From Pseudidiomarina andamanensis (GTDB taxonomy: Bacteria > Pseudomonadota > Gammaproteobacteria > Enterobacterales > Alteromonadaceae): DNA of 32,000 nucleotides. The stretch lies in assembly GCF_009734345.1 (NCBI RefSeq), contig NZ_CP032551.1, forward strand, positions 660,001-692,000, given 5' to 3'. Below the pieces are notes generated by a model. The model was not told the DNA's origin and searched no databases. It saw only the letters and a program-made list of their open reading frames with translations. This document shows positions 1,879 to 24,870 of this stretch, piece by piece (positions within the stretch are counted from its first letter, which is position 1; every line of letters begins with the position of its first letter). The position numbers and the translations under genes are program-made.

Positions 1879-3189
<1,311 letters not shown>

Positions 3190-3196
3190 TCAAAAG

Positions 3197-5535: not shown

Positions 5536-5559
5536 AATTTTGTCCGTTACCACTTTAAA

Positions 5560-7950: not shown

Positions 7951-8095
7951 ACACTACTCCAGCTCATTGCTTGACTTGCCATAGGGTTCTGTCGTCCTTT
8001 TGTTCTGAGCTTCATATTCTTATGATTTTGATATTTTTATTGAAGCTATTGTAACTTGCTTGACCACGTTATACAGCAATTTATCCTGCCTTTTC

Positions 8096-8587: not shown

Positions 8588-8755
8588 TGTTTTTCTCTAT
8601 TTTATGTATTCTATAACTATTTATAGCCTATAAAATGCCATAAAAAAAGTACGAAACACACCTATCTAATCATCTATAATTGCCGCCGAAATAAGTAGCT
8701 ATCATGAAGCTATGAATCAAACTCAACGACAAGTTATTATCGGAGAAGCACAACC

Positions 8756-9883
8756 ATGCTGATTGGTGTACCTAAAGAAATTAAAAACCACGAGTATCGT
8801 ATTGGATTAACCCCTGCGGCAGTTCGCGAATATGTTGCCCATGGTCATCAAGTGATGGTTGAGCAAAACGGCGGTTTAGCAATTGGTTTCACCAACGAAG
8901 ACTATGAACAAGCTGGTGCGACAATCGTTGCTGACGCGAAAGAAATTTTCACCAAAGCCGAAATGATTATTAAAGTAAAAGAGCCGCAGCCACACGAGTG
9001 CGAACAACTGCGTGAAGGTCAAATTCTTTATACTTACCTGCATCTTGCACCAGACCCAGTTCAAACTGAATTGTTAGCAAAAGCTGGCGTCACTGCCATT
9101 GCCTACGAAACCGTCACTGACCGTAACGGTGGTTTGCCATTGTTAGCGCCAATGAGTGAAGTAGCTGGTCGTATGTCAATTCAAGCCGGTGCGCACAACT
9201 TAGAAAAAGCAAACGGCGGTAGCGGCACCTTGTTGGGTGGCGTACCTGGCGTTGCTCCTGCAAAAGTTCTCGTCATCGGTGGTGGCGTGGTTGGTACTCA
9301 GGCAGCGAAAATGGCTGTAGGTATGGGCGCCGATGTGACCATTCTTGACCGTTCATTGCCCCGTTTGCGTCAATTAGACGATATCTTCGGTGGTCGTGTA
9401 AAAACCATCTACTCAACCGTAGACGCTATCGATGTGTTCTCTCGCGAAGCTGATTTGGTTATCGGTGCGGTACTTATTCCAGGTGCAGCAGCGCCGAAAT
9501 TGTTAACTCGCGAACACTTACAGAACATGAAACCAGGTTCTGTTGTCGTTGACGTTGCAATTGACCAAGGTGGCTGCTTCGAAACATCGAAAGCGACCAC
9601 GCACCAAGATCCAACCTACGTCGTTGAAGATGTCATTCACTACTGTGTAGCAAACATGCCTGGTGGTGTTGCGCGTACCTCAACGATTGCATTAAACAAC
9701 GCAACCTTGCCGTTTGGCTTGGCGTTAGCAAACAAAGGTTTGAAAGCGATGGCTGATGACCCGCACCTATTAAATGGCTTGAACATGCACAAAGGTAAAA
9801 TCACCTATAAAGCGGTTCATGACGATTTAGGAGCGCAGCTTGGCCTTGATTATCAAGATCCAGCGGAAGCGATTAAAGCCTAA
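8756..9883 (+). CDS. ald: Alanine dehydrogenase
   Basis: 375 aa. The N-terminus [23 protein letters not shown] and the Rossmann motif [12 protein letters not shown] are typical of L-alanine dehydrogenase. Confidence 0.95.
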
Positions 9884-9921
9884 ACTGCTTTTGGCGATTG
9901 TGCCGGAGCGATAGCTTGACA

Positions 9922-9959
9922 AGACCCGCAGTGGATTTCCACCGCGGGTCTCTTGTTTC
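9922..9959 (+). terminator. Rho-independent terminator downstream of ald
   Basis: 13-bp GC-rich stem AGACCCGCAGTGG / CCACCGCGGGTCT with one mismatch and a 4-nt loop ATTT, followed by CTTGTTT. It lies 39 nt after the ald stop. Confidence 0.75.
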
Positions 9960-10007
9960 AAAGACTTGTAATGCCTACAATCGACCCCCATAGTGACAAG
10001 TATCTAG

Positions 10008-11000
<993 letters not shown>

Positions 11001-11039
11001 TCGCCTTGGTTCAGAATTTGGTTCATAGAGAGAACTCTG

Positions 11040-11738
11040 GTGTTATTTGAACTGACGACCGATTCGGTCTGGTTTCCATCGCCAGAGTTCGCTTTACGCG
11101 AACCTGATGGTTTGCTCGCGTTCGGCGGCGATTTATCTCCAGAACGCCTTATCGAAGCCTATAACCATGGTATTTTCCCTTGGTACAGCTCTGAAGACCC
11201 TATTTTGTGGTGGAGCCCCAACCCGCGTACCATATTTACTGCCGAAAGCCTTCACGTCAGTCGTTCAATGAAACGCTTTTTGAAACACACCGATTTCCAG
11301 GTGACTTTGAACAATGCCTTTAACGAAGTTATAAAAGCCTGTGCCGATGTTCATGAACAAGCAAATCGCGGCGTATGGATACACCCAGAAATGCAGGCCG
11401 CTTATAATGTACTTCATCAATTGGGGCACGCTCATTCGGTAGAAGTCTGGCACGATAGTCAGTTAGTTGGTGGGTTATATGGTATTGGTGTTGGAAATAT
11501 TTTCTGCGCCGAGAGTATGTTTCACACTCAAACCAACGCCAGTAAAGCTGCCCTGTTAATTTTTGCGCAAGAATTTTTCGATGCCGGCGGCGAATTAATC
11601 GATGCTCAAATTCGTAACGAGCATACGGCAAGCCTTGGTGCTCACGATATTTCGCGACAGCAGTATCTGCACAAATTACACACACAAAAGAATACATTGC
11701 GTACAAATTTCTGGACACCAACGTGCTTAAAAGCTTGA
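11040..11738 (+). CDS. aat: Leucyl/phenylalanyl-tRNA--protein transferase
   Basis: GTG start. Aat motifs GLLAFGGDLSPERLIEAY, GIFPWY and ILWWSPNPR. Adjacent to infA/clpA/clpS as in E. coli. Confidence 0.93.
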   Translation: MLFELTTDSVWFPSPEFALREPDGLLAFGGDLSPERLIEAYNHGIFPWYSSEDPILWWSPNPRTIFTAESLHVSRSMKRFLKHTDFQVTLNNAFNEVIKACADVHEQANRGVWIHPEMQAAYNVLHQLGHAHSVEVWHDSQLVGGLYGIGVGNIFCAESMFHTQTNASKAALLIFAQEFFDAGGELIDAQIRNEHTASLGAHDISRQQYLHKLHTQKNTLRTNFWTPTCLKA

Positions 11739-11879
11739 ACAATCACGATAAGCAGTGGCAATTGTCATGAAAAACGGCTAAAATTCTGCCACTTTTCGCG
11801 GCGTAAGCCTTATCTACGTTAGCAACTTAATAAAATTTGCGAGTTCATCGCATCATTAGAAAATTTATCGAGGACTTGA

Positions 11880-12098
<219 letters not shown>

Positions 12099-12109
12099 TT
12101 CAGGCCACT

Positions 12110-12136
12110 CGCGGTTCAATCAGTGGTTGAACCGCG
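12110..12136. terminator. Strong hairpin spanning the convergent infA/clpA junction (possible bidirectional terminator; no U-tract)
   Basis: 10-bp perfect stem CGCGGTTCAA / TTGAACCGCG with a 7-nt loop. It overlaps the last clpA codons (stop at 12116-12118). Neither side has a clear T-run, so terminator function is uncertain. Confidence 0.35.
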
Positions 12137-14389
12137 CGCCTCCCGCTCTTCAATTTTAAGTTCCAACTGGCCTTTAGCAACAGACACGTTGACCGCACCA
12201 CCATGTGCAAGCTTACCGAACAAAATTTCGTTCGCTAATGGTTTTTTCAAGTGTTCTTGAATGACACGCGCCATTGGACGAGCCCCCATCGCTTTGTCGT
12301 AGCCTTTTTCCGCTAACCAACGAATTGCAGCTGGTTCAAGTTCAAGTGACACATGCTTTTTATCCAATTGTGCTTGTAGCTCACAGATAAACTTATCAAC
12401 CACCTGCTCTATCACTTCTTGATTCAAGTGATTAAACCAGACTATGCCATCTAATCGATTGCGAAACTCTGGTGAGAATGTTCGGTTAATTTCGGCCATC
12501 GCATCTGGCGCATGGTCTTGCTGCTGAAAACCAATGGATTGACGCACTGTTTCTTGCACGCCGGCATTGGTTGTCATTACCACAATCACATTACGGAAAT
12601 CCGCTTTACGGCCGTTATTGTCGGTCAAAGTTCCGTGATCCATCACTTGCAACAGAATGTTATAAATGTCGCTATGCGCTTTCTCAATTTCATCTAATAG
12701 CAATACGCAATGTGGGTGTTTGATTACGGCGTCTGTCAGCAAGCCACCTTGTTCAAATCCGACATAACCTGGCGGTGCGCCAATTAAGCGGCTCACGGCA
12801 TGACGCTCCATGTATTCCGACATATCAAAGCGAACAAATTCGATTCCCAATACTTTTGCAAGCTGTTGAGTTATCTCAGTTTTACCAACACCCGTTGGGC
12901 CGGCGAACAAAAATGAACCGATTGGCTTGTGTTCTTGACCTAAGCCTGAGCGTGATAATCGAATTGCGGCAGTGAGTTGATCAATCGCTTGATCTTGCCC
13001 AAACACCACCAGCTTCAAATTGCGATCGAGTTTTTTCAAAATCTGCTGATCACTGCGTGATACAGACTGCTCTGGAATGCGTGCGATTTTCGCAATAATG
13101 CTTTCAATATCTTGCACGCCGATGGTTTTCTTGCGCTTCGATGGCGGCAGTAGACGCTGACTAGCGCCCGCTTCATCCAGCACATCAATCGCTTTATCTG
13201 GCAAATGACGCTCGTTGATATAGCGCGCTGACAACTCCGCCGCGGCACGAATAGCCGGCTGGGTATATCGAATGCCATGATGTTCTTCGTAGCGCTCTTT
13301 TAAGCCCTGAAGAATTCGCGTGGTGTCGTCAACTGATGGTTCCGCCACATCAATCTTCTGAAAACGGCGCACCAATGCACGATCTTTTTCAAAAATATTC
13401 TTATATTCGGTGTATGTGGTTGAGCCGATACACTTCAGTTCACCGCTGCTCAACAACGGCTTCAATAAGTTAGAAGCATCTAACACCCCACCACTTGCCG
13501 CACCTGCACCGATAATGGTGTGAATTTCATCAATAAACAAGATGGCGTCAGGTTGTTCTGCAAGCTCTTTTAATAATTGCTTAAAGCGCTTCTCGAAGTC
13601 GCCTCGGTACTTCGTACCAGCTAATAAGCCGCCCATATCCAATGAATAAATAACCGCGTTTTGCATGACCTCTGGCACATCGTCGGTAACGATTCGGTGC
13701 GCTAAGCCCTCGGCAATCGCCGTTTTACCCACACCCGCCTCACCAACTAACAATGGGTTATTTTTACGGCGACGACATAGCACTTGAATGCAGCGCTCGA
13801 GTTCAAAATCACGCCCAATTAATGGGTCGATTTTGCCTTCACGTGCTCGTGCATTGAGATTGGTACAAAAACGCTTTAAGAAACTCTGTTGTTCTTCGGT
13901 TTGCGCTTCAATGGTCTCGGCATCACTACTATCAGTTTGCGACGACTCATCATCAATTTTAGTCATCCCATGTGACAAATAATGAACCACATCAAGTCGT
14001 GTAATATCGTGCTTATTTAATAAATAGACAGCGTGTGACTCTTGCTCGCCGAAAATTGCGACCAGCACGTTGGCGCCGGTTACTTCGCTGTTACCTGATG
14101 ACTGAACGTGGAAAACCGCGCGCTGTAATACGCGTTGAAACCCAAGCGTTGGCTGCGTATCGGTGTCAGCACTTTCATCATCAAAACTCGGTGTACTACG
14201 ATCAACATAGCTCAATAATTCTTGCTTTAACTGCGTGAACTCAAGCCCACAAGCGCGTAACGCTTGCGCTGCCTCTGGATTATCCAGCAACGCTAACAGG
14301 AGATGCTCCACCGTCATTAATTCATGACGATGATCTCGGGCTAACCGAAACGCATCATTTAACGTAATTTCTAGCGCTTTATTTAACAT
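12116..14389 (-). CDS. clpA: ATP-dependent Clp protease ATP-binding subunit ClpA
   Basis: 757 aa with a Clp N-domain and two AAA+ modules ([17 protein letters not shown]; [19 protein letters not shown]). Preceded by clpS. Confidence 0.98.
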
Positions 14390-14429
14390 GAGCTACTCCT
14401 TAAAAGGCTCAGTGCACAGCTTGCAAGCC

Positions 14430-14744
14430 TCAGGCTTTTTCCATCGAGCATAACAACGGATGCTGATGCTCGCGGGCGTACTGGTTCACTTGTACTACTT
14501 TGGTTTCTGCGATTTCTGCAGAATAGACGCCACAAATGGCGCGTCCTTTATAATGGATGGTCAACATGGTGTCAGTTGCCCGCTCTTGATCCATCCGAAA
14601 AAACTTAATTAAAACCTCAACGACAAAATCCATTGGGGTGTAGTCGTCATTATTTAATATCACCTTGTACATTGGGGGCGGCTGTAGCTTTTGCTTTTCA
14701 GCAACCCTTTCGCTGCCTTGTTGGTGATGATCTGCCATACCCAT
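14430..14744 (-). CDS. clpS: ClpA adaptor protein ClpS
   Basis: 104 aa with the ClpS core [23 protein letters not shown]. It lies 40 nt upstream of clpA. Confidence 0.95.
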
Positions 14745-14862
14745 GGATGACCCTTTCTTTATATATAGTAGCTATTTGCGCAAATGGCTTAAAAATTTGT
14801 AAGTTCGGTGAAAAATACCCACCATGAGACTAAGTTTGTTCACAAAACAATCAAAAAACGGC

Positions 14863-14890
14863 TTGACTATCACCAGAACTCACCTAGAGT
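14863..14890 (+). promoter_or_regulatory. Candidate sigma-70 promoter for cspD (TTGACT-N16-TAGAGT)
   Basis: -35 TTGACT at 14863-14868, a 16-nt spacer, and -10 TAGAGT at 14885-14890. This implies a roughly 100-nt 5'-UTR, as is common for csp genes. Motif match only. Confidence 0.4.
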
Positions 14891-15000
14891 AAAACATGGT
14901 GTTAACAAAGCAACATTTCAAGTGTGTCAAACACGTCGTTTCGTTAGCAACCATTCTAACAATAACTAAATTTTAAATGCAGAATAAAGGATGTAGAAGT

Positions 15001-15216
15001 ATGGCAACCGGTAAAGTGAAATGGTTCAATAATTCCAAAGGTTTTGGCTTTATCGAGGCAGAAGATCGCGAAGGCGATATTTTTGCACATTACTCAACAA
15101 TTGATATGGAAGGCTATCGCACGCTGAAGGCTGGACAAGACGTTGAGTTTCAACTCGAGGAAGGGCCTAAAGGTCTTCATGCAACCAACATTATTCCGGT
15201 GCAAGGTAGTAAGTAA
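15001..15216 (+). CDS. cspD: Cold-shock-domain protein, CspD-like
   Basis: MATGKVKWFNNSKGFGFI with RNP motifs. The ATG at 15001 is preceded by AAAGGA. It is divergent from clpS as in E. coli. The tracker's start at 14977 adds 8 unlikely residues. Confidence 0.88.
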   Translation: MATGKVKWFNNSKGFGFIEAEDREGDIFAHYSTIDMEGYRTLKAGQDVEFQLEEGPKGLHATNIIPVQGSK

Positions 15217-15235
15217 GACGCCACACGCACCATAT

Positions 15236-15264
15236 AAAACGCCGACTTTAAAGTCGGCGTTTTT
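15236..15264. terminator. Bidirectional Rho-independent terminator between convergent cspD and yejK
   Basis: Perfect 28-nt palindrome AAAACGCCGACTTT/AAAGTCGGCGTTTT. It has a GC-rich stem core flanked by an A-run on one side and a T-run on the other, and sits between the two stop codons (15216 and 15284). Confidence 0.8.
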
Positions 15265-15283
15265 CGTTTATATTGGCGCTGAC

Positions 15284-16327
15284 TTAACTATCAATACCGA
15301 AATAGCGGCGTAATTGATCACGCAGGTTCGGCGGCGTGCCGTGAATCGTCAATTTATCGGTGTGTGGATCATATTCAACCCGAGCACCAAGTAGCTCTTG
15401 GTCAAAACCGACACTCAAGCCACCACCCTGCCCTTGAAACTTCACGAGTTTACGCAACGTACCTCTATCCGCTCGAATCTCTTCTGGTAACGGTTGTGAT
15501 TGCTCAGCAGTGAAGTCAGCAAAGCTTCGCTCAGTCGGCACGGCTTGTTGTAACTGTTCAGATAAATCTTTGACTCGCACCGGCTCATTACTTTTCCATG
15601 AACTGTCGCAGATGTCGTATACCGATTTACGCAATGTATTCGCCTGCTCCGTCGGTAACTCCGCCGCTTTCACATAATCGTGCAAGCTCTCAACTAAATG
15701 TTGTGACTGCTTCTTCGCATTCAAACCTTCTGCACACCCCAAAAAGTCCAAGAAGAAATCAGATACTTTACGTCCAACTCGGCCCTTAATAAATGAAATA
15801 TAGGTGGCTGACTCCGGTTCTTCCTGCCATTCAGTAAGATTAATGGTGGCGGCTAATTGAACTTTATTGATATCAAGTTGCGATGAACGGTCCACCGATA
15901 AATCAGGCGCTATAGTGACACCATCTTTGCTTGGCAAAAAAGCGACAACTAAATAATCTTGTCCTAACTCGGTATAGCTGGCGATAACCAAAAAACCATC
16001 TTCCAAAATGCCATAGTGCTGTAGCTGTTGATGAAGAATCTTTGCTGCTTGTTGAGAAAAACCAATAAACTCATCATCGCCACTTCGCCAAGCTTTCAAT
16101 TTATCCGGGAACTCACTTATCTGATGTTCTTCCGCATCATCGTTGACGGGATCAATAAAGCGCGCATAGCCTTTACTTGGTTTCGCGTTATAAACTTCCG
16201 TTAGCTCACTCAATAACAGACCAACTTCGTCATTAATAGCCAGAGTTGCTGGAGCAATTCGCAGACCAATCTGCCCGTCGTTGGTATAGAATTGATGGAT
16301 AATGCTATGTTTCACATCAGCTTGCAT
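15284..16327 (-). CDS. yejK: Nucleoid-associated protein YejK (NdpA)
   Basis: 347 aa with an NdpA-like N-terminus (IIHQF...) and overall layout. Divergent from yejL-yejM as in E. coli. Confidence 0.9.
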   Translation of the reverse strand: MQADVKHSIIHQFYTNDGQIGLRIAPATLAINDEVGLLLSELTEVYNAKPSKGYARFIDPVNDDAEEHQISEFPDKLKAWRSGDDEFIGFSQQAAKILHQQLQHYGILEDGFLVIASYTELGQDYLVVAFLPSKDGVTIAPDLSVDRSSQLDINKVQLAATINLTEWQEEPESATYISFIKGRVGRKVSDFFLDFLGCAEGLNAKKQSQHLVESLHDYVKAAELPTEQANTLRKSVYDICDSSWKSNEPVRVKDLSEQLQQAVPTERSFADFTAEQSQPLPEEIRADRGTLRKLVKFQGQGGGLSVGFDQELLGARVEYDPHTDKLTIHGTPPNLRDQLRRYFGIDS

Positions 16328-16398
16328 GTTATCTCGGTGTCCTCTGTGATTCCCTGTGATACTATGTGCGCTAGTTTAACATGTTGAGATTTAAAACC

Positions 16399-16620
16399 AT
16401 GCCGATTGTTTCGAAATACGATGTAAAAACCCAACAACAGCTGCTTGATGCGGTAATTGATGTCTTGAATCAACATAAAGCGCCAACCGATTTAGCTCTC
16501 ATGACGCTTGGTAACGCCGTTTCAAATATTATCAATGCTAGCTATAAATCCGAAGATGCGTACAAGGTTGCTGAACAATTTGGCAAAGTACTGCTACAAT
16601 CGATGCAAAAACAAGCATAA
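16399..16620 (+). CDS. yejL: UPF0352 protein YejL
   Basis: MPIVSKYD...LLDAVIDVLNQHKAPTDLALMTLGNAVSNIIN aligns with E. coli YejL ([46 protein letters not shown]). The ATG at 16399 is preferred over 16381. Confidence 0.87.
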   Translation: MPIVSKYDVKTQQQLLDAVIDVLNQHKAPTDLALMTLGNAVSNIINASYKSEDAYKVAEQFGKVLLQSMQKQA

Positions 16621-16635
16621 AGGTTTAGTCACCGC

Positions 16636-18255
16636 ATGAAACAACGTAAACAACGTCGCGATAAAATTGCTCGATTAATTAGCTGGGGCCACTGGTTTAC
16701 GTTTTTCAATATCCTACTCGTGCTCGCAATTGGCACACTCTATATTGAAGCCACCGAAGCGCCAGGAAGTGCGCTAGGCGTTCTTTATCTGATCATGAGT
16801 TGGCTGGGACACTTTGCATTTTTGCCGTTCATTGTTTTTATTATTCTTATTTTTCCGTTCTGTCTTCTCATTCCATATACCCGAATTTTGCGTGGTATCG
16901 CCACTTTAGTCGCCTCGTTTGGGCTGATAGCGCTGGTCGCTGATGCGCTGTTCTATAGACAATATGGCTATCATTTAAATACCTACTCGTTATCGCAGTT
17001 GGCAACTGACGCTGAAACAGTATTCGCAGGGGCAAGCTTTCTCATTCTAATAGGTATGCTACTCATTTTTGTGGTGCTGCTTATTTTCGAACTTGGCCTG
17101 GCCAATATTGCGTGGAAAAGGCTTGACCAATTACAACAGAAACATTGGGGCAATGCGTTCAGCGCCGTTTTCGTATTGTGCTTTTTAACCAGTCATAGCA
17201 TTCATATCTGGGCTGATGCGGTGTTCTACACCCCTATTACCAAGCAAGATGACATGTTTCCGTTGAGTTATCCCACTACAGCAAAAACGCTCATGAGCAA
17301 ACACGGATTGCTTGTTGAACAACGCCTTGAGGCGACTGAAAATCTTATTCGTCAAGGTACAGCAATTAAATTGGCATATCCGAGCCGCCCACTGCAGTGC
17401 GCGCGTGTACCTGATGCACCAAATACATTGGTGATTGCGCTAAACCAACTTGACGCAGCTACCTTAAAAACGTTGTTACAAGAGTTTCCAGAATTAAAAG
17501 CATATGAAAGCTCAGTTCTTGGCCATCGTGATAGCACCAGCGGTCTGTTTGAACTCATCTATGCACTGCCTGATCTTTATCAAGCACCAATTCAGCACGC
17601 AAACAAACAACCAGTCTATTTTTCTACGTTACGCGATTATCGGGTTGAAGTGACGTTACAAAATCAATTGCAATCGTCGTCATTACCGGCCGCACTTGAC
17701 GCGTTTAGCGCTTTTAACTTACCTGAGCCGTCGGCGTATATTGGTATTGCTGCAGCAGACACTATGACACCAGAAATGAAACGTGTTCTACGTCGACAGC
17801 TCGATCAACACACAGAAGTGGTGATACTAGGTATACAACCACAACAGCCGGAACAAAAAGAGGCGCAGTCTATTTCAGCCATGCAAGTGCCGTTGCTCTA
17901 CACTGAGGGGCTATCGTTAAAATCACAGCCGTTAGTGTTACTTACCGACATCATGCCAACCGTACTAGCGCGTTACATTAATTGTGTTGATGAAGCCGAT
18001 GCGTATTCTATTGGCATTGATTTAACCGAAGAACAACGTCGCTTGCCTGTCATGACAAGTTTCGGCCATGACCTTGTTGTTTACGATGAAGAAATGACAT
18101 CAATTATTAAGGCCGATGCAACTATTCGTACGTTTGATAATGTTGAGCACAAATTATTACCAGGAGTTTCTCCTGCAACACCAGTTTTAGTTGATGGTAT
18201 TCGGAAATTGAAACGCTTCAGTCAAGAGCAACAACCAAACCCTATTGAGCAATAA
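16636..18255 (+). CDS. yejM: Inner-membrane YejM/PbgA/LapC-like protein
   Basis: The N-terminal region is colinear with E. coli YejM (ISWGHWFTFFNILL, HIWADAVFYTPITKQDDMFPLSYPTTAKTLMSKHGLL). It has five hydrophobic helices followed by a large C-terminal domain. The yejK-yejL-yejM-tRNA-Pro order is conserved. Confidence 0.82.
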   Translation: MKQRKQRRDKIARLISWGHWFTFFNILLVLAIGTLYIEATEAPGSALGVLYLIMSWLGHFAFLPFIVFIILIFPFCLLIPYTRILRGIATLVASFGLIALVADALFYRQYGYHLNTYSLSQLATDAETVFAGASFLILIGMLLIFVVLLIFELGLANIAWKRLDQLQQKHWGNAFSAVFVLCFLTSHSIHIWADAVFYTPITKQDDMFPLSYPTTAKTLMSKHGLLVEQRLEATENLIRQGTAIKLAYPSRPLQCARVPDAPNTLVIALNQLDAATLKTLLQEFPELKAYESSVLGHRDSTSGLFELIYALPDLYQAPIQHANKQPVYFSTLRDYRVEVTLQNQLQSSSLPAALDAFSAFNLPEPSAYIGIAAADTMTPEMKRVLRRQLDQHTEVVILGIQPQQPEQKEAQSISAMQVPLLYTEGLSLKSQPLVLLTDIMPTVLARYINCVDEADAYSIGIDLTEEQRRLPVMTSFGHDLVVYDEEMTSIIKADATIRTFDNVEHKLLPGVSPATPVLVDGIRKLKRFSQEQQPNPIEQ

Positions 18256-18319
18256 AGCATCAGTTGATGCCCTAGCCTCTTGCCAATTCAGTGGTTATCG
18301 GTAATATAGCCAGCTCGGT

Positions 18320-18396
18320 CGGCGTGTAGCGCAGCTTGGTAGCGCACTGTCATGGGGTGTCAGGGGTCGCTGGTTCAAATCCAGTCACGCCGACCA
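18320..18396 (+). tRNA. proL: tRNA-Pro (anticodon GGG)
   Basis: 77 nt, folded by hand. Acceptor CGGCGTG/CACGCCG; D-arm GCGC-AGCTTGGTA-GCGC; anticodon arm CTGTC-ATGGGGT-GTCAG (U33, GGG at 18354-18356, G37, one T:T mismatch at 30:40); variable loop GGGTC; T-arm GCTGG-TTCAAAT-CCAGT; encoded ACCA end. Position after yejM matches E. coli proL. Confidence 0.9.
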
Positions 18397-18406
18397 ATAA
18401 ATTCTA

Positions 18407-20281
18407 TTACTCTGCGAAATGGTATTGATTGCGACCGCTCTCTTTTGCTTGATACATGGCAGCATCAGCAATCTTCAACAACTGTTTCGGGGTATCAGCA
18501 TGTTCGGGGTATAACGCGACCCCCATCGACGCACCAATCTGTAATGTCAGCGTACCAACACGAAATGGCTTTTGCAGCGCCTCAATAACGTCAGAAGCAA
18601 TTTTCTCGATATCGCTTCGTTGTTGAATAGTCTCAATTAAAATAACGAACTCATCACCACCCAAACGCCCGACAATATCTGAAGAACGCAGACATTCTCG
18701 AACGCGCGGACCAATCGCTTGCAACAGCGCATCACCAACATCATGTCCGTATGAGTCATTGACTGGTTTAAAGAAATCCAAATCAAAAAATAAAAGCGCA
18801 CAGGATTGATTCGACTGGTGCGTTCGTTTGATGGCATCATCAAGATGCTGAAGCACAGCAAAACGATTAGGGAGATGTGTGAGCGTATCGGTTAACGCCA
18901 GTTGTTGCATCCGCTCTTGGTCGTGTTTTTCGGCAGAGATATCGTTAAAAATATGAATGAGCTGCAACGCATCGTCATGATTATTCCGCACAGGCGTTAT
19001 GGTTTGTAATGCAGGAAAAACATCGCCACTCGGCTTTTTGTACCAAACCTCACCCTGCCAGCTATCATTTTTTTGAATGTGACGTCTAACCTGACGTTGG
19101 ATATCATCAGTCATTCGATTGTCGTCGATAAACGTCAATAAACAGGTGCTTTTAACCTTGTCCACTTCAACATCAAACAGCTGCGCAAATGCTTTGTTTG
19201 CGCGTAAAATAACCAGCGCTTTATCAGTAATCACAATGGCTTCCTGAGCTCGCTCAAAAACTGTATTGGCGAGTTTTAACTTGCGATTCGATTCATGTAA
19301 TAATCTGTGTTGTGTTAACTGAGCGCGAATAATCGGCTGCGAATATTTATGCAGCAACCAAGTGCCAATTGCTACCGTCAAGAATATAACCAACGCGATC
19401 GAGACAAACTCGGTAAATAAAGCTTCAAATAAATTTGCTTGCGCATGAATGACGACTAAGCCCCACGCTGAATCTTGAAATGGAATAAAATAGTGTAATC
19501 GAGTGTCTTCTTTTGATGTATCCCGATATACAAACGGAGCATTGCCGTAGGCAGCTATATAGAAATTCTCGTTAGTGCCGAATTCACGTTGCTTTAATTG
19601 ATTCGAAGTTTGATCAAATTCGATGTACAACCGCTCACGAGAATTCACCAAACGAAAATTAGTACCGTTTCCGAATGTGTTTAATTCACGCAAAATATCA
19701 ATGATCTCGGTGGGTCCAAACAACAAGATATCGATACCAATTGTGCGGTTGTTATCATCGGCTATTGGTGCCGCTGCAGAAATAAAAAGATTGTCCGCTA
19801 AGGTCACGTAATGCAAACCGTAGGGTCTTAATTGCTGCGGGTCAAAACTTAATTCAGTGGCAAAAGAATTCCTCGCCGGACCACTATACTGGGCAATCAC
19901 TTCGCCAGTATTAGTCATTCGAATACCAACAACTAAATTCGGAATAAACGCCGCCGCATCAGTAATACGCACACGTGTTTCTTGTTTAACTTGTGCTGAA
20001 TCTATCTCACCTGCGGTGTAGGCAATTAGAGCCTTTCTAATTTGGGTTCGACTGGCAAACTGTTTGGCAATTGATTGATAATGTTGAAGCTGTTTTTGCA
20101 CCGACATCGCCTGCGCTGAGGCATAGGCTAAACCGGTTCGGTCTTGTGATTGAGAAATATAATAAGACAGTGGAAGAAATGTCATTAAACTTGCAACGAC
20201 ACCAGTCAGCAAAATACCCCATACGACTTTGCGAATAAGCGTTCGATATTTTCCTGAAATGTCTGTAGCAGTTTGTCGCAC
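18407..20281 (-). CDS. Sensor diguanylate cyclase (periplasmic sensor domain-TM-PAS-GGDEF)
   Basis: GTG start preceded by AAGGA. TM helices at about residues 20-41 and 289-310 flank a periplasmic domain of roughly 245 aa. A PAS-like segment follows (ERAQEAIVITDKALVILRANKAF...). GGDEF domain with RLGGDEFVIL and an RxxD I-site (RSSD) five residues upstream. Confidence 0.9.
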   Translation of the reverse strand: MRQTATDISGKYRTLIRKVVWGILLTGVVASLMTFLPLSYYISQSQDRTGLAYASAQAMSVQKQLQHYQSIAKQFASRTQIRKALIAYTAGEIDSAQVKQETRVRITDAAAFIPNLVVGIRMTNTGEVIAQYSGPARNSFATELSFDPQQLRPYGLHYVTLADNLFISAAAPIADDNNRTIGIDILLFGPTEIIDILRELNTFGNGTNFRLVNSRERLYIEFDQTSNQLKQREFGTNENFYIAAYGNAPFVYRDTSKEDTRLHYFIPFQDSAWGLVVIHAQANLFEALFTEFVSIALVIFLTVAIGTWLLHKYSQPIIRAQLTQHRLLHESNRKLKLANTVFERAQEAIVITDKALVILRANKAFAQLFDVEVDKVKSTCLLTFIDDNRMTDDIQRQVRRHIQKNDSWQGEVWYKKPSGDVFPALQTITPVRNNHDDALQLIHIFNDISAEKHDQERMQQLALTDTLTHLPNRFAVLQHLDDAIKRTHQSNQSCALLFFDLDFFKPVNDSYGHDVGDALLQAIGPRVRECLRSSDIVGRLGGDEFVILIETIQQRSDIEKIASDVIEALQKPFRVGTLTLQIGASMGVALYPEHADTPKQLLKIADAAMYQAKESGRNQYHFAE

Positions 20282-20399
20282 CGCATATCCTTAGGCTGGT
20301 TTTTGAATGACTGCGTTACATCCTTTAATTGGTCTTAGTATAGCTAACTTTGTAAAACAATTACTCAGCTAAATGTAGGTAAGAGGTTACCCACAACGG

Positions 20400-21800
20400 C
20401 TAATTCGCCTGGCTCCAAAAACCGCGACAAAGTTCGGTCACATCACGCACACACTCTTGACGTTGTGCGTCGCGCACAAAACTGCGCTGATTCAAACTCG
20501 ACCATTGCGGGTGTCGACGTGCTAATTTTAAACGTCCTGACAATGCCCGCAGAAATTGTTCGCGCAATTTCGAAGACTGCGTTACTAGCAATAAATCTTG
20601 TGAACCGTGGCCACGTGTTGCTAATTGCTGTAATAAATTCATTTGCCGCAGTGTAAGCAGTTTTAGAATCTCATCATCGACAATCAACTCACGCTCACCT
20701 TTGAAGTGACCAAGCAGTTTTTTTCCGTAATGGTTCCAGCCCTGCCAAATACCGCCAATAGCAGCGCCTAGAGCTGTACCAGTACCTAAACTCATCCCGC
20801 CAACCATCAAATCAATACCGGCACCAATCGCCGCACCACTGCCAACACCCACACTGGTTTTAATTCCAAACTCTTTCAGTGTTTCTAACTCAAACAGGTC
20901 GTCTTTCCATGTACCATCAGTCAAACGAAGCTGTTGTAAGCGAACATGTTCTAAACGAAACGCATAAAGCGCTAACATTTCAGTGACACAATTACGCTCG
21001 CGTCGTTTTACTAAATTCTGCATTTGCTCAACGATTGGCTTAAGTTGCGCATCACCAAAATCAGCGTTGACTTGCTCGTGAAATGCGGCCACATCAACAA
21101 GTAGTTCGGCTATTTGAGTTAACCCCGTATTTAAACGATGCGCCCGCTGCTGCGTGCGATATTCAGCGAGTTGTTCAAGTTGCTGCTGAAAGCCAGGCAC
21201 TATCGCACTAAGCCGATTAAACAAGATAGCTTCGCCCCCTTCTGGAGGACTCACCGCATCGAATTCAATATGCGCATGCAGATTAACTTTGGTAAGAGCC
21301 AGCTTCCATTCGTTCACATTATTTGGTTTTTGTGCCGTGAAGTTCAAAATTGGCAGTATCGGCTTGCCACAACGCGCAAGAACACTCAGTTCGTCTTGAT
21401 ACTTCGGTAATACCGGATCACGTACATCAATGACATATAACGCTGCATGACATTTCAATAACTGGCGCAATACCTTCGATTCTTGTTCGAATTGTTGTGC
21501 TGCCGCCATGGTGTTTAGAAAGTGACGAACTTGTGCTGGACCATCGTGGCGAAAGTTTGATTCGCTCTTTACCAAGTGTTCGTACAAATCAGAACCGGCT
21601 TCTAACCCCGGCGTATCAAATAAGCGCAGTAATAATTGGCCATCCGCATCAACATCGATGCTGGTCACTTCACGAGTTGTACTTGGACGCGAATCAACCT
21701 CGCCGAATTGGCTATCATGCAACAAAGTTCGCATTAACGAGGTTTTACCGGTATTTGTGTGTCCAACTACGGCGAGCATGAGTGCGTTTACTGTTTCCAT
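20400..21800 (-). CDS. Membrane-anchored P-loop GTPase of unknown function (resembles GTPase/DUF3482 family from memory)
   Basis: The ATG at 21800 is preceded by GAGGAGGG plus a 6-nt spacer. G1 GHTNTGKTS, G2 region PSTTRE, G3 DTPGLE. No canonical NKxD; LNFTAQ sits at the expected position. Then a helical Q/L-rich middle, the glycine-zipper hydrophobic segment GVGSGAAIGAGIDLMVGGMSLGTGTALGAAIGGIW, and a basic C-terminal tail. The tracker's start at 21833 reads through the RBS. Confidence 0.8.
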   Translation of the reverse strand: METVNALMLAVVGHTNTGKTSLMRTLLHDSQFGEVDSRPSTTREVTSIDVDADGQLLLRLFDTPGLEAGSDLYEHLVKSESNFRHDGPAQVRHFLNTMAAAQQFEQESKVLRQLLKCHAALYVIDVRDPVLPKYQDELSVLARCGKPILPILNFTAQKPNNVNEWKLALTKVNLHAHIEFDAVSPPEGGEAILFNRLSAIVPGFQQQLEQLAEYRTQQRAHRLNTGLTQIAELLVDVAAFHEQVNADFGDAQLKPIVEQMQNLVKRRERNCVTEMLALYAFRLEHVRLQQLRLTDGTWKDDLFELETLKEFGIKTSVGVGSGAAIGAGIDLMVGGMSLGTGTALGAAIGGIWQGWNHYGKKLLGHFKGERELIVDDEILKLLTLRQMNLLQQLATRGHGSQDLLLVTQSSKLREQFLRALSGRLKLARRHPQWSSLNQRSFVRDAQRQECVRDVTELCRGFWSQAN

Positions 21801-23101
21801 GTTACGCCCTCCTCGGTTAAGCAATCTTGCCAATGCACAATACGTCTCTCGTCAGTTTTATCTGGCACGACTAACAGCGCTTCAACATTCAAACAATATT
21901 GCTGAAGCAATGTTAAAAATCGCATCGCCGCTCGGTCTGGAGTTAATCGAGCATTCAACCGCACTGTTAAGCGAGCAACCGGATGTTCATCTAAACGCGC
22001 CAACAGCCGCTGCTTGTCTTCACTTCTAGCAATCACACCTGCATACCAACTTTCTTTCTGATGTTGCTTCAACCAAGCTGAGTCGGCTTCATGATCGAGA
22101 CTGATCACTAGTTCACCTTGGCCCGGTTTTGGCGTGCGCCACTGCGCGTTGTCAATCCCCGAAACATCGCTATCCGCATCAACCAACTCGGTTGCTGCCG
22201 ATATCGTTAATTTCCGAATAATTGGTGCGTAACCCGGCAAGGTTAAATCAATGGTCATTTTTCGAATGCGCCCAATCAAAACAATAATAGAGCCAATCAA
22301 AAATAGGAATCGCCAGGCAACACCATAAATGATAACGCAGCTGAGCAACCAACGACCCGCTTCAAGCTGAGCACTCTCACTGGGTTTGTCCCACAGTGCC
22401 GCAACCGACGGCGCATCAACACCAAACAAGGTCGGAATTAAACCGATTACACTTACCCATGTTTGCAGGGTTTCAGCAGGCCAGATAGTAGTTGCCCAAG
22501 TAAATACATACGCACTGGTGCTTAAGTGAAAAAACAAGACAAACCACACCGCTAACATGAACAGCGTCCAATAGCCGTGGGTTAACGCCGAACCAGCTGG
22601 CTTTGTTAGTCCGTACTGGTTGGCTATGGTGAGCAAGGTATTATTGAACTGCTGGTTATACTGGCGCTGTCCAATGTGTTCTAGTGCCCACAGTGACACA
22701 CGCCCCACCCAGCCAAAGCTATCTTTAATAATCAGAGAAAAGCACCAGAGTAAAAATAAAATGATGTGTAAACCCAATAACATCATTAAGGCGTAACTTA
22801 GCGAGATAGGCTGTGTAACACTTAATGTGCCACGCACAATGGCAACGGCACCAACAATGGCAAATACGCTGAGAAGAATTGCGATGAGTCGTCGAAAGTG
22901 GTCCCACACCCGTAATTGATGCACAAGCCCAAGTCGTGCTGCTAATAATTCGGCACGCTTGAACACCCGCTGTTCCATTGTTGGTAACTGGCGAGCTTGT
23001 TGTTCGATGGCATCGGCGCGTTGAAAGCCATTTTGTAATTCATGGCGGCGAACGAGTTCCGCCATCCATACTGAACGAAAACGAGAGAATATTTTAAGCA
23101 T
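21788..23101 (-). CDS. Polytopic membrane protein of unknown function (resembles DUF2868 family from memory)
   Basis: 437 aa. About 5-6 hydrophobic helices (e.g. LIAILLSVFAIVGAVAIV, ALMMLLGLHIILFLLWCFSLII, YWTLFMLAVWFVLFFHL, LLSCVIIYGVAWRFLFLIGSIIVLIG) and a soluble C-terminal domain of about 150 aa. Its stop overlaps the downstream GTPase gene by 13 nt. Confidence 0.75.
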   Translation of the reverse strand: MLKIFSRFRSVWMAELVRRHELQNGFQRADAIEQQARQLPTMEQRVFKRAELLAARLGLVHQLRVWDHFRRLIAILLSVFAIVGAVAIVRGTLSVTQPISLSYALMMLLGLHIILFLLWCFSLIIKDSFGWVGRVSLWALEHIGQRQYNQQFNNTLLTIANQYGLTKPAGSALTHGYWTLFMLAVWFVLFFHLSTSAYVFTWATTIWPAETLQTWVSVIGLIPTLFGVDAPSVAALWDKPSESAQLEAGRWLLSCVIIYGVAWRFLFLIGSIIVLIGRIRKMTIDLTLPGYAPIIRKLTISAATELVDADSDVSGIDNAQWRTPKPGQGELVISLDHEADSAWLKQHQKESWYAGVIARSEDKQRLLARLDEHPVARLTVRLNARLTPDRAAMRFLTLLQQYCLNVEALLVVPDKTDERRIVHWQDCLTEEGVTWKQ

Positions 23102-23214: not shown

Positions 23215-23451
23215 TTATAATTGCGTGCGTTGGCGGCAAGTCGCTTCAGATAAGTCGTAATTCACACTAACATAATGGTCATTTGGACAAACCAACCGTT
23301 CTGACTCTTTCTTATTATTAGTGGATAACTGCGTTAATTTTACCGCCCAATCATTTAAGTTTACGTTAGGGGTAATATCGATCTGTTGGTCGCGGTTATA
23401 GTACTGAAACGCAACGCCGCCGAAGATAAGAAGCAACAATAATTTGCGCAT
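23215..23451 (-). CDS. Small hypothetical exported or membrane-anchored protein (78 aa, two Cys)
   Basis: The ATG at 23451 gives MRKLLLLLIFGGVAFQYY, an N-terminal hydrophobic signal or anchor. The mature part has two cysteines. I recognise no homolog. Support comes only from ORF length, the signal-like N-terminus and its position in an otherwise empty gap. Confidence 0.45.
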   Translation of the reverse strand: MRKLLLLLIFGGVAFQYYNRDQQIDITPNVNLNDWAVKLTQLSTNNKKESERLVCPNDHYVSVNYDLSEATCRQRTQL

Positions 23452-23500
23452 GGCTATTTCCACCTAATTTACAATCAAATAAGAAAATGGCAATTTTGCC

Positions 23501-23591: not shown

Positions 23592-23927
23592 TTATGATTT
23601 CGCTTGAGTTAACTTAACCGCAGTACCATAGGCTAATAATTCTGCTGCACCATGCGCAAGCATTGAAGTACTGAAACGCACATCAATCACTGCGTCGGCG
23701 CCTAGTGTTCGAGCTTCATCGACCATTCTATCTAAAGCCTGTTCGCGGCTCTCGCCAAGCAGTTTGGTGTAATCATGAATTTCACCACCAACAATATTTC
23801 TAAAAGCAGCCAAAATATCTCGACCAAGATGACGCGCTCGAATGGTATTCCCGCGTACTAAACCCAGATGCTCGGTAATTTTAAACCCAGCAATATGGTC
23901 ACTACTCACAACTCGCACGTGTTTCAT
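23592..23927 (-). CDS. ybjQ: YbjQ/UPF0145 family protein (putative heavy-metal-binding domain)
   Basis: 111 aa, colinear with E. coli YbjQ (FRNIVGGEIHDYTKLLGESREQALDRMVDEARTLGADAVIDVRF...GTAVKL vs [44 protein letters not shown]...GTAVK). Its ATG overlaps the anti-sigma stop (ATGA at 23924-23927). Confidence 0.87.
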   Translation of the reverse strand: MKHVRVVSSDHIAGFKITEHLGLVRGNTIRARHLGRDILAAFRNIVGGEIHDYTKLLGESREQALDRMVDEARTLGADAVIDVRFSTSMLAHGAAELLAYGTAVKLTQAKS

Positions 23928-24367
23928 AATTGTACCTTCTTGTACCGATCATTCTTAGCGGCAATCCATCGTTGGCGTGCCACTGCTCCAAACAAGAGTA
24001 AAAACCCAAGCCCTAAACTGCTAGTGACGAGTTTGAGTGCCATCGGTATCGATTCATCCGACCAATAGCTAAAAATTCCATATATCGCGAGCAAAGACAA
24101 CGTGGTTAATACAAGAACCCATCCCGCGATGAACGCCCATCGACTCGGCTTATCCTTGTCGAATTTCGCCAGCAGTTGCCCATCATCAAATTTCGGTATC
24201 GCATTGCGCAGTTGCTCTCGCATACCTTGTAACTCTTTTAATTCGCTCTGACACCCCGCACACTCGGCTAGGTGATGATGCAATTGTTGCTGCTGCTGTT
24301 GCGTCAATTCATTATCCATGAAACCAGAAATTAGCGTTGCTGCCTGTTCGCATGTTAAACCACTCAT
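23924..24367 (-). CDS. Membrane-anchored zinc-type (ZAS, HxxxCxxC) anti-sigma factor
   Basis: The N-terminal segment CEQAATLISGFMDNEL...HHHLAECAGC contains the H-x3-C-x2-C motif. Two hydrophobic helices (WAFIAGWVLVLTTLSLLAIYGIF, LVTSSLGLGFLLLFGAVA) are joined by a loop of only about 13 aa. ATGA overlap with the upstream ECF sigma gene. Confidence 0.82.
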   Translation of the reverse strand: MSGLTCEQAATLISGFMDNELTQQQQQQLHHHLAECAGCQSELKELQGMREQLRNAIPKFDDGQLLAKFDKDKPSRWAFIAGWVLVLTTLSLLAIYGIFSYWSDESIPMALKLVTSSLGLGFLLLFGAVARQRWIAAKNDRYKKVQL

Positions 24368-24870
24368 TTTTCACCTCGTTGCAACGTCTCTAACACCTGT
24401 TTTAAAGCTAGCCGGGCGCGATGTAACCGCGACATAACGGTACCTTGTTCAAGCTGCATAATTTGGGTTATATCGGCATAGCTACAGCCATTAATTTCAC
24501 GTAAGACAATAATTTCGCGCTGTTCAATCGGTAACTTCTGAAGCGCCATTCTTACCATTTGTTGGGTCTGCCAAGTTTCGAACTGGTGTTCAGGCTCAAT
24601 CATGGTTGGCGCTTGCTGCTCATAATCTTCGCCCCCTAAGCCTTGTTCTTTGCGCTGACGCCGAATGACGTCAATCGCCGCATTATGAACGGCGCGCAAA
24701 AGCCAAGCTTTCAACTGGTGTTTATCAGTTGGCATATCGGTAACCGTCAACGCTACTTCTAACACCTGTTGCACACTATCGGCAGCACGCTGCTCGCATT
24801 GCTGGATAGCCATGGCATGTGTCATAGCATCGGCTATCAATGGTTTAAGCAGCGCCAAGCGTTCAGACAT
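24364..24870 (-). CDS. ECF-type RNA polymerase sigma factor (sigma-70 family group 4)
   Basis: 168 aa with region 2 (WLLRAVHNAAIDVIRRQRKE) and a region 4 HTH (REIIVLREINGCSYADITQIMQLEQGTVMSRLHRARLALKQ). AGGA lies 7 nt before the ATG. Confidence 0.9.
   Translation of the reverse strand: MSERLALLKPLIADAMTHAMAIQQCEQRAADSVQQVLEVALTVTDMPTDKHQLKAWLLRAVHNAAIDVIRRQRKEQGLGGEDYEQQAPTMIEPEHQFETWQTQQMVRMALQKLPIEQREIIVLREINGCSYADITQIMQLEQGTVMSRLHRARLALKQVLETLQRGEK

Follow-up and report, generated by a model that had tools for sequence, protein, structure and literature searches.

A pair of overlapping genes on the minus strand of the window, a 32,000-nucleotide stretch of Pseudidiomarina andamanensis DNA, raises the question of what a small GTPase-like protein does when it is made together with a polytopic membrane protein. 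We refer to the upstream gene and its product as A and to the downstream gene and its product as B.

Gene structure and translational coupling

Gene A (23101..21788, minus strand) encodes a 437-aa DUF2868 inner-membrane protein, as assigned from its open reading frame and Pfam match, and ends in TAA at 21790-21788. Gene B (21800..20400, minus strand) encodes a 466-aa GTPase/DUF3482 protein, running from an ATG at 21800-21798 to a stop codon at 20402-20400. The automatic list of open reading frames begins B at a TTG at 21833; we prefer the ATG at 21800, since homologues begin there (MESINALMLAVVGHTN in homologue P0003). Between the stop codon of A and the start codon of B lies a 13-nt overlap (21788..21800, minus strand), and a Shine–Dalgarno sequence for B, GAGGAGGG (21814-21807, minus strand), can be read within the last codons of A, 6 nt 5' of the ATG. 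An earlier reading made from the sequence alone, hereafter the sequence-only reading, had described this overlap and the ribosome-binding site inside A, and all of its coordinates were verified on the sequence. GGAG-type sites occupy the equivalent position in relatives, and among the 70 loci in which the B start could be placed, 62 show an overlap of start and stop (range 1-29 nt), most commonly of 8 nt (47 of the 70). A scan of the locus for promoters and terminators gave counts at the level of shuffled sequence and was uninformative.

Family assignment

Protein B matches DUF3482 (PF11981; 275.6 bits, E = 7e-82, aa 168-454; gathering cut-off 29.2 bits) and MMR_HSR1 (50 bits, E = 3.7e-13), and protein A matches DUF2868 (PF11067; 118.3 bits, E = 6.6e-34, aa 151-430; gathering cut-off 26.8 bits). 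Both DUF families had been named correctly by the sequence-only reading; the scores lie well above the gathering thresholds, and the same families are matched in Pfam by 78 of 78 B homologues and by all 24 A homologues tested. With a DUF2868 gene immediately upstream of B on the same strand, the window holds the DUF2868–DUF3482 two-gene module. Within Pseudidiomarina, an annotated A orthologue is 92% identical and B orthologues are 89-97% identical; 3460 homologues of B were found, and an exhaustive search of the DUF2868 family yielded 1060 clusters at 50% identity. Judged by sequence comparison, the pair is an ordinary orthologue pair of catalogued Pfam and NCBI families, and the locus itself is routine.

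No function is assigned to DUF2868 or DUF3482, and membership is therefore mechanistically uninformative. Searches of A and B against Pfam, NCBIfam and PADLOC, and of 78 B and 24 A homologues against Pfam, returned only the two DUFs and generic G-domain matches. In profile searches against solved structures, B matched Der, Era and MnmE over G1-G3 alone, and A matched nothing. Across Pfam, NCBIfam, PDB profiles and Foldseek, neither protein matched a functionally characterised family outside the G domain of B, in agreement with the description of the pair from which we started. Literature searches under the DUF and PF accessions found no functional study of either family, and those under guessed PAO1 locus tags found incidental mentions only.

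Protein B

The N-terminal part of B (aa 1-185; 21246..21800, minus strand) is a predicted G domain, matched best in the PDB by Era, Der, MnmE and IF2. GHTNTGKTS, DTPGLE, LNFTAQ and the glycine-rich segment, the motifs originally picked out in B, are all present. The G1 motif (G13-H-T-N16-x-G-K19-T-S), the switch I threonines (T41-T42) and the G3 motif (D62-T-P-G65-L66-E67) are invariant across 78 sequences, and B carries the canonical G1 GxxxxGK(S/T), G2 Thr and G3 DxxG of TRAFAC-class proteins at G13-K19-T20, T42 and D62-G65. The catalytic motifs, which had been singled out for checking, are therefore intact. P-loop Asn together with a hydrophobic residue at the position of Ras Gln61 marks the cation-dependent HAS-GTPases (MnmE, FeoB, Era), and B has Asn16 in 78 of 78 sequences and Leu66 in 77 of 78.

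At G4, where strand 5 ends, B has L152-N153-F154 (21339..21347, minus strand), followed by T155, instead of the TRAFAC (N/T)KxD. N153 is present in all 78 sequences; the next residue is F/Y and the one after it V/T, and the motif contains neither Lys nor Asp family-wide; the absence of NKxD from the single sequence thus extends to the whole family, and an L-N-F-type G4 is likewise found in B from Neisseria, Moraxella and Thiodictyon. With no guanine-reading Asp at G4, the base preference of B may be relaxed, and the protein may bind nucleotides weakly or take ATP besides GTP.

Beyond the G domain, the AF2 model of B (pLDDT 76, pTM 0.74) continues into a helical region (aa 189-310; 20871..21236, minus strand) with long helices at 202-239 and 250-278 and a conserved W298-xx-D-L-F motif. 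This is followed by a glycine-zipper hairpin (aa 314-352; 20745..20861, minus strand) with an invariant D330 at its turn, and by C-terminal helices with an R396-G397-H398 motif and a basic tail (aa 353-466; 20403..20744, minus strand). The hairpin residues G318, G322, G326, D330, G335, G339, G345 and G349 stay invariant down to 24% identity. The Kyte–Doolittle hydropathy of the hairpin is moderate, at 1.1-1.3, with a 19-residue maximum of 1.35 against the usual TM cut-off of 1.6; among family members, the most hydrophobic 19-residue segment averages 1.73. Because the value for the B studied here falls below the cut-off, we infer rather than observe that B is membrane-anchored. Of the membrane hairpin proposed by the sequence-only reading, the glycine-rich segment stands; its insertion is not borne out by the AF2 model (pLDDT 25-46 in the hairpin) or by the hydropathy here. 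By the PAO1 gene numbering, PA0344 may tentatively be equated with B. In a published computational survey the P. aeruginosa orthologue was predicted to lack TM segments, and the PA0344 protein has been detected by 2-D gel analysis of soluble proteins; both observations count against a membrane complex.

Protein A

The AF2 model of A (mean pLDDT 91.7) begins with a K/R-rich helical region (aa 1-70; 22892..23101, minus strand) that is predicted to be cytoplasmic, with helices at 2-24, 30-36 and 42-57, 13 K/R against 7 D/E, and nearly invariant E21 and R49. The membrane domain (aa 72-281; 22259..22888, minus strand) was delimited by hydropathy peaks, model helices and conserved columns. Hydropathy and the AF2 model both give four TM helices (approximately aa 72-92, 100-126, 178-197 and 257-281) plus a weakly hydrophobic loop helix at 217-229, fewer than the five or six TM helices first counted, and the positive-inside charge bias points to a cytoplasmic location of both termini. 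A conserved loop, periplasmic or re-entrant, contributes Y198, T201-W202-x-T204-T205, P223, G227 and P231, and R264 lies inside TM4. The conserved polar and aromatic residues of the membrane domain fit a transporter or a sensor equally well, which counts against the explanation that we favour below.

The C-terminal domain of A (aa 330-437; 21791..22114, minus strand) is a predicted cytoplasmic, flavodoxin-like alpha/beta domain of five beta-alpha units, as indicated by its secondary structure and pLDDT above 90. Its folded part amounts to about 108 aa and follows a partly disordered linker, which revises the original estimate of a soluble domain of about 150 aa. Foldseek returned only weak matches for this domain (EF-Tu, E = 0.053; CheY-like receivers, E ≥ 0.33). 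After strand 3 stands the signature (S/T)-P-D-R-G, represented in the window by P388-D389-R390 (21932..21940, minus strand). In 142 A sequences, D389 and R390 are invariant (142/142 each), as are W424 and R264, and P388 is found in 135.

Conservation and genome neighbourhood

A DUF2868 gene lies directly upstream of B, in the same strand and order, in 80 of 80 related genome loci, and the two genes are also adjacent in N. gonorrhoeae, P. aeruginosa and a Thiodictyon relative (25% identity). Together with the overlap in 62 of the 70 scored loci, this shows A and B to be conserved neighbours, a point that the sequence-only reading had asked to have checked. At least 572 representative species genomes carry the pair; it is spread over several hundred species of beta- and gammaproteobacteria, among them Pseudomonas aeruginosa and Neisseria gonorrhoeae. 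An exception to the two-gene rule is Moraxella: in M. catarrhalis, B is present and a DUF2868 gene was not detected within the 30-48 kb sequence of two prophage records, a finding that counts against the complex proposed below. No natural fusion of A and B was found among the homologues listed; P0284 has the appearance of a gene call arising from read-through or a frameshift.

No third gene is conserved beside the pair across the lineages compared, the flanks being folA and ilvD in Pseudomonas, BacA in Halothiobacillus, DUF1232 in Alcaligenaceae and TetR in Aliidiomarina; A and B thus form a self-contained module. In P. aeruginosa the surroundings are of housekeeping type, with folA, thyA and lgt, and an FkbM methyltransferase gene follows directly. 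The pair is single-copy and, across Pseudidiomarina, keeps its position beside tRNA-Pro(GGG). The sequence-only reading had placed it in an accessory stretch after a synteny break at this tRNA, which does not hold: synteny of the pair is kept within the genus, its GC content is normal, and the variable elements are its neighbours, a GGDEF gene and an ECF sigma cassette. Signalling genes adjoin A and B in two settings, ECF sigma/anti-sigma and GGDEF genes here and a diguanylate cyclase gene in Thiodictyon.

An origin from mobile elements was considered and rejected. The plasmid matches come from N. gonorrhoeae chromosomes wrongly labelled as plasmids and from one Thiodictyon megaplasmid, and the phage matches are host DNA, namely the flanks in Moraxella prophage records and a P. 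aeruginosa chromosome segment deposited as 'phage Y10'.

Relation to dynamin-like proteins and YcjX/YcjF

The sequence-only reading saw in B a miniature of the dynamin/mitofusin layout. The domain order agrees with this: like Nostoc BDLP, LeoA, IniA and DynA, B runs from an N-terminal G domain through helices to a hydrophobic or glycine-rich hairpin and returning helices. The type of G domain and the Dynamin_N score do not. The G domain of B, at about 185 aa, is of the Era/TEES type rather than the larger dynamin type. Its Dynamin_N score (17.1 bits, E = 0.0059) comes from the P-loop region only and lies below the cut-off of 27 bits, and the structural matches of B to LeoA and IniA, poor over the full length (TM approximately 0.24, Foldseek), rank no better than those to Era or IF2. 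No match to dynamin-like structures was found outside the G domain. Dynamins have T/NKxD at G4, in contrast to the L-N-F of B, and the partner of B is a polytopic membrane protein, not a second dynamin-like protein. Given a small G domain of the Era/Der/MnmE type, the likeness is an analogy of domain order only: it is one of layout, not of family membership.

The E. coli pair YcjX (a P-loop NTPase, DUF463) and YcjF (DUF697) resembles A and B as an overlapping two-gene combination of an NTPase with a small polytopic inner-membrane protein; ycjX and ycjF overlap by 4 nt, and their order is reversed relative to A–B. Homology beyond the P-loop was rejected on hhalign probabilities of 5% for B against YcjX and of 0.4% and 0.5% for A or B against YcjF.

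Proposed mechanism

We tentatively propose, while granting it somewhat less than an even chance, that A and B are two subunits of one inner-membrane nucleotide-hydrolysing complex, with membrane reshaping as its favoured output. The proposal starts from what is shown above: the gene structure, the families, the conserved adjacency and overlap, intact catalytic motifs, a G4 that lacks its Asp, and folds as predicted. To these it adds a physical A–B complex, insertion of the hairpin, roles for R390, D330 and R264, and a cellular output, all of which we infer. Translational coupling would yield A and B in fixed proportion. A would be the membrane subunit, with four TM helices, both ends in the cytoplasm, a conserved periplasmic loop and a cytoplasmic flavodoxin-like domain that may dock onto B, where Asp389-Arg390 could regulate the nucleotide site, perhaps in the manner of an arginine finger. 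B would be a small NTPase of the Era/MnmE type, probably dependent on a monovalent cation, whose chain runs through helices to the glycine-zipper hairpin and then back. The hairpin might dip into the cytoplasmic leaflet or pack on the helices of A, and its D330 could meet the intramembrane R264. Nucleotide binding and hydrolysis would move the hairpin, and the inner membrane would be reshaped or maintained as a result. In this action A and B would resemble a bacterial dynamin-like protein without being one.

A bolder form of the proposal, which we regard as a rather doubtful possibility, is that A–B represents a mechanistically new two-subunit membrane NTPase that arose independently of dynamins and FeoB. 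Its Era-type G domain, without guanine read-out and maybe accepting ATP or any NTP, would be activated in trans by the Asp-Arg of A and would drive the hairpin within the membrane, possibly paired with the intramembrane Arg of A; inner-membrane remodelling, repair or gating would be the outcome. The pair is compact, self-contained and strictly co-inherited, and is found in P. aeruginosa and N. gonorrhoeae among others. It is tractable enough to address how a minimal G domain that lacks the guanine-reading Asp couples to a membrane, with N153/F154 and D330 in B and R390 and R264 in A as mutational targets.

Alternative explanations

A fairly unlikely alternative is a split FeoB-like machine, in which the membrane domain of A would be a channel or transporter, probably oligomeric and perhaps completed by the hairpin of B, with B as the gate. 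FeoB likewise combines a membrane domain with a cation-dependent, HAS-type G domain that carries Asn in the P-loop and replaces the catalytic Gln by a hydrophobic residue, and both of these class features are present in B. Weak FeoB_N matches occur in all 78 B homologues (best E = 7.7e-6), strict co-translation is typical of the subunits of one machine, and the invariant H175, T204, T205, Y259 and R264 in the membrane domain of A would be needless for a mere anchor. However, FeoB is one polypeptide with many more membrane helices, whereas here there are two genes and A has only four. The FeoB_N score of B is 15.1 bits, under the Pfam threshold of 27, and neither A nor B matches FeoB_C or Gate; FeoB keeps an Asp at G4 (NxxD), which B lacks. 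A matches no transporter family or fold (DUF2868 only in Pfam; no Foldseek match with E < 0.05), and substrate-related genes are not conserved near the pair.

Transmembrane signalling, which we consider improbable, would have A sense an envelope or periplasmic cue through its outer loop and switch B, as the output, through the receiver-like domain. The membrane part of A is indeed most conserved in the predicted periplasm-facing loop (Y198-T205, P223-P231), its C-terminal domain has a CheY/flavodoxin-like fold, and signalling genes adjoin the pair in the window and in Thiodictyon. Those neighbours, however, are not conserved with A and B, and B has no recognisable output domain. Nor does the C-terminal domain qualify as a receiver: the phospho-acceptor position is Asp in just 76 of 142 sequences (Asn in 32, His in 13; N383 in the window), Pfam returned no receiver match, and the CheY-like Foldseek matches remain at E ≥ 0.33.

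It is very unlikely that B is an Era/Der-like assembly GTPase associated with ribosomes or RNA, its link to a membrane protein being incidental or localising only. Era, Der and MnmE, of the TrmE-Era-EngA-YihA-septin-like GTPases, are closest to B in G1-G3 and share its GxxNxGK(S/T) P-loop, and with IF2 they are the best matches of the G domain in both sequence and structure. These matches, however, do not extend past G3 or are confined to the G domain, and scores against NCBIfam models of the Era/Der/MnmE type are all far below the equivalog cut-offs. B differs from these proteins in lacking NKxD and the KH domain, any other RNA-binding domain or their other C-terminal domains, and in having a helical insert of about 50 residues between G3 and strand 4. 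The strict coupling to A and the invariant glycine zipper favour a membrane role.

That A and B form an anti-phage defence system akin to the dynamin-like Eleos (LeoA/LeoBC) is highly improbable: PADLOC HMMs match B (LeoA, E = 4.9e-12; LeoBC, E = 3.9e-11) and LeoA and IniA are among its Foldseek matches, but the HMM matches are limited to the G domain (aa 7-162 against positions 58-193 of models of 559-601 positions) and are no better than generic MMR_HSR1, A has no PADLOC match, and the single-copy, syntenic pair of normal GC content sits among housekeeping genes in P. aeruginosa, its 'phage' records being host DNA.

A conserved two-gene module

The window carries, on the minus strand, gene A (23101..21788, TAA at 21790–21788), encoding a 437-aa membrane protein, followed by gene B (ATG at 21800–21798, ending at 20400), encoding a 466-aa GTPase. 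The genes overlap by 13 nt, and the ribosome-binding site of B, GAGGAGGG (21814–21807, minus strand), lies inside the last codons of A, 6 nt before the ATG, in agreement with the sequence-only reading. An ORF list places the start of B further out, at a TTG (21833); the ATG is the start in homologs. The families named in that reading were borne out by Pfam: protein A matched DUF2868 (PF11067; E = 6.6e-34) and no other family, with no NCBIfam match, and protein B matched MMR_HSR1 (aa 10–153; E = 3.7e-13) and DUF3482 (PF11981; aa 168–454; E = 7e-82). NCBIfam matches of B to Era, Der, and MnmE were all sub-threshold and covered the first ~80–170 residues. B is 89% identical to its P. gelatinasegens homolog and A 92% identical to that of P. 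marina, both Pseudidiomarina. The locus is a routine ortholog of an already catalogued, uncharacterized two-gene module. A literature search by family name found no functional study of DUF2868 or DUF3482; they are reportedly mentioned only in passing in a machine-learning study of Salmonella and a phylogenomic one of Pseudomonas.

An exhaustive profile search returned 1060 clusters of A at 50% identity, indicating a modest, fast-diverging family; a word-indexed search recovered only 17–24 relatives. For B, scanning one genome per species identified at least 572 relatives, the best 80 loci of which were taken for neighborhood analysis, with A and B detected by HMMs built from our own alignments. 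All 80 had a DUF2868 ORF directly preceding B in the same orientation. With the starts of B placed relative to the conserved AVVGHTN motif, 70 loci could be scored: the genes overlap by 1–29 nt in 62 and are separated by 2–147 nt in the other 8, which upholds the proposal that they are conserved, overlapping neighbors. The overlap is exactly 8 nt in 47 of the 62, and in these the codons for the C-terminal W-L-E of A (TGGCTGGAG) double as a GGAG ribosome-binding site. Clustering of flanking ORFs revealed no third gene conserved across lineages; upstream neighbors include folA and ilvD in Pseudomonas, bacA in Halothiobacillus, DUF1232 in Alcaligenaceae, and a TetR gene in Aliidiomarina. Constant adjacency, frequent overlap, and the lack of any other conserved neighbor thus define A–B as a self-contained module with conserved translational coupling.

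In Thiodictyon the genes are adjacent with a 1-nt overlap, though B is only 25% identical. The DUF2868 protein there (L086, plasmid pTs485, 3869–5980) has 703 aa, ~250 aa above the usual length, with no added domain recognized by Pfam. A proteomics table includes a Thiodictyon DUF2868 protein among the differentially expressed ones. The pTs485 pair adjoins pufBA light-harvesting genes and a diguanylate cyclase gene on the 485-kb plasmid. In the 530-aa database protein P0284, the C-terminal half of a DUF2868 protein runs into the initial ~60 GTPase residues and then into degenerate Arg/Ala-rich sequence; rather than a true A–B fusion, this is probably a gene call from a high-GC genome that contains a read-through or a frameshift.

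Genomic setting

The sequence-only reading had placed the pair in an accessory stretch after a synteny break at tRNA-Pro. This does not hold: throughout Pseudidiomarina, the pair is flanked on one side by the same ABC-exporter gene and on the other by the DUF3413/yejK genes, and its GC content is unremarkable. The tRNA-Pro(GGG) gene immediately follows B in three relatives (L004, L009, and L016); in the window (18320–18396) and two relatives (L001 and L002) it follows an inserted GGDEF-PAS diguanylate cyclase gene (window 18407–20281), which is absent from the first three. The variable insertion at tRNA-Pro is the GGDEF gene, not the pair. Just upstream of A, an overlapping cassette encoding an ECF sigma factor, a zf-HC2 anti-sigma factor, and a YbjQ-family protein (23592–24870) is present in the window and L009 and is not linked to the pair, since it is missing from L001, L002, and L005. 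Between the YbjQ gene and A lies an 82-aa ORF (23215–23463, minus strand) with a hydrophobic N-terminal stretch, MRKLLLLLIFGGVAFQYY, and no Pfam match; its product is possibly a small protein that is exported or sits in the membrane.

Plasmid and phage matches do not indicate mobility. Two 2.17-Mb N. gonorrhoeae records filed as plasmids in PLSDB (L082, NZ_CP119142.1; and NZ_CP119140.1) are evidently chromosomes; both carry A and B adjacent, with a 73-nt gap in place of the overlap. A full-length GTPase/DUF3482 gene is found near the right end of fourteen Moraxella catarrhalis prophage ("phage") records, in the host flank, after a small HTH (excisionase-like) gene and before a host-type ABC1/UbiB kinase gene (L084, KR093656.1, 28153–29553; L085, KR093641.1, from about 48001, record match 48073–49413). 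No DUF2868 gene was detected by HMM in the two records scanned (30–48 kb of sequence), the one exception seen to the pairing; B may stand alone in Moraxella, or else the prophage parts it from its partner. The P. aeruginosa "phage Y10" (L087, OQ572411.1, unannotated and labeled 'UNVERIFIED'; 1859–21156) is chromosomal DNA, because it carries ilvD, a xanthine/uracil permease gene, folA, adjacent A and B, an FkbM methyltransferase gene, thyA, lgt, a TauE exporter gene, and ptsP. On this gene order, and with thyA presumably PA0342, B would tentatively be PA0344 and A PA0345. On a 2-D gel of soluble proteins, a spot of 50.5 kDa corresponded to PA0344 and was reduced in a small-colony variant (PMC3240657).

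Protein A

Hydropathy and charge bias give protein A four TM helices with both termini cytoplasmic, in place of the five or six first counted. The N-terminal ~70 residues form a basic helical region. The TM3–TM4 loop, predicted to be periplasmic, holds a weakly hydrophobic helix and the best-conserved motifs of the membrane part (Y198, T201-W-x-T-T205, P223, G227, and P231), and R264 within TM4 is invariant. In a confident AF2 model (pLDDT 91.7), residues 330–437 form five beta-alpha units with a flavodoxin-like fold; Foldseek returned nothing significant (EF-Tu, E = 0.053; CheY-like receivers, E ≥ 0.33). All 142 sequences have an acidic residue after strand 1, and only 76 have Asp at the end of strand 3; the domain is therefore not a true receiver. 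Beyond strand 3, the loop reads (S/T)-P-D389-R390-G, its Asp-Arg present in all 142, and W424 is invariant.

Protein B

Across 78 sequences, the G1 motif G13-H-T-N16-x-G-K19-T20-S21, switch I T41/T42, and G3 D62-T-P-G65 are invariant, as is E67, and L66 is present in at least 77. Cation-dependent HAS-GTPases such as MnmE, FeoB, Era, and Der are marked by an Asn in the P-loop and a hydrophobic residue where Ras has Gln61; B has both (Asn16 in the P-loop), in accord with its best sequence and structure matches. At the G4 site, ending strand 5, the 78 sequences have L-N153-F/Y-V/T with invariant N and neither Lys nor Asp, and L-N-F/Y recurs in Neisseria, Moraxella, and Thiodictyon; the earlier finding of no canonical NKxD, which left nucleotide preference undecided, therefore extends family-wide. 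Together, these residues point to intact catalytic machinery from which the guanine-reading Asp is gone. In the AF2 model (pLDDT 76, pTM 0.74), the G domain spans ~185 aa, and G3 is separated from strand 4 by a helical insert of ~50 residues. After strand 4, aa 122–138 are near-invariant (Y-V-I-D125-x-R127-(D/E)-P-V-L-x-K133-(Y/F)-x-D136-E137-L138; D125 and R127 at window 21426–21428 and 21420–21422). We know of no recognized counterpart in Era-type GTPases; the segment might contact a partner or act in catalysis in cis.

Beyond the G domain are long helices (202–239 and 250–278), a small beta element, a Gly-zipper segment (315–355; pLDDT 25–46), and three further helices. G318, G322, G326, G335, G339, G345, G349, and the turn residue D330 are invariant even at 24% identity. 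Hairpin hydropathy is 1.1–1.3 in the window protein (19-residue maximum 1.35), and the maximum averages 1.73 across the family. The hairpin could plausibly insert into the membrane. Two complete TM spans are a poorer fit than a hairpin that is re-entrant or packed against a partner. An in silico survey of P. aeruginosa hypothetical proteins gives the adjacent pair and predicted no TM segment for the GTPase.

Proposed function

As judged from sequence and monomer models, a single heteromeric inner-membrane NTPase best fits what is seen: the genes are strictly co-inherited, their coupling is conserved, the NTPase is intact, and its membrane partner has an invariant cytoplasmic Asp-Arg and an invariant intramembrane Arg. 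Tentatively, and at somewhat less than an even chance, we propose that the nucleotide cycle of B would move the Gly-zipper hairpin at or in the membrane in a mechanochemical role, with A as receptor and regulator and R390 as a candidate arginine finger. The family is a reasonable experimental target. The sequence-only interpretation survives in its families, adjacency, and missing G4 motif and not in its island or TM count; added here are a non-canonical G4 throughout the family, a P-loop of the HAS, cation type, the four-TM topology, three invariant features (Asp-Arg, D330, and R264), and quantified gene coupling.

A split FeoB-like gated transporter, with the cation-type G domain and the membrane part on separate chains, is the foremost alternative, and an unlikely one. 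An envelope-sensing switch, for which the conserved loop of A would face the periplasm, is less probable still. Foldseek matched B to PDB structures over the G domain only (Era at 1e-5, and IF2), and a ribosome-associated GTPase is very improbable. A role in defense is the least credible: PADLOC matches to LeoA/LeoBC (about 1e-11) are confined to aa 7–162, and LeoA (rank 12) and IniA (rank 16) align by Foldseek over the G domain only (TM about 0.24). The Dynamin_N match of B is below threshold. The E. coli YcjX/YcjF proteins form an analogous, yet not homologous, pair.
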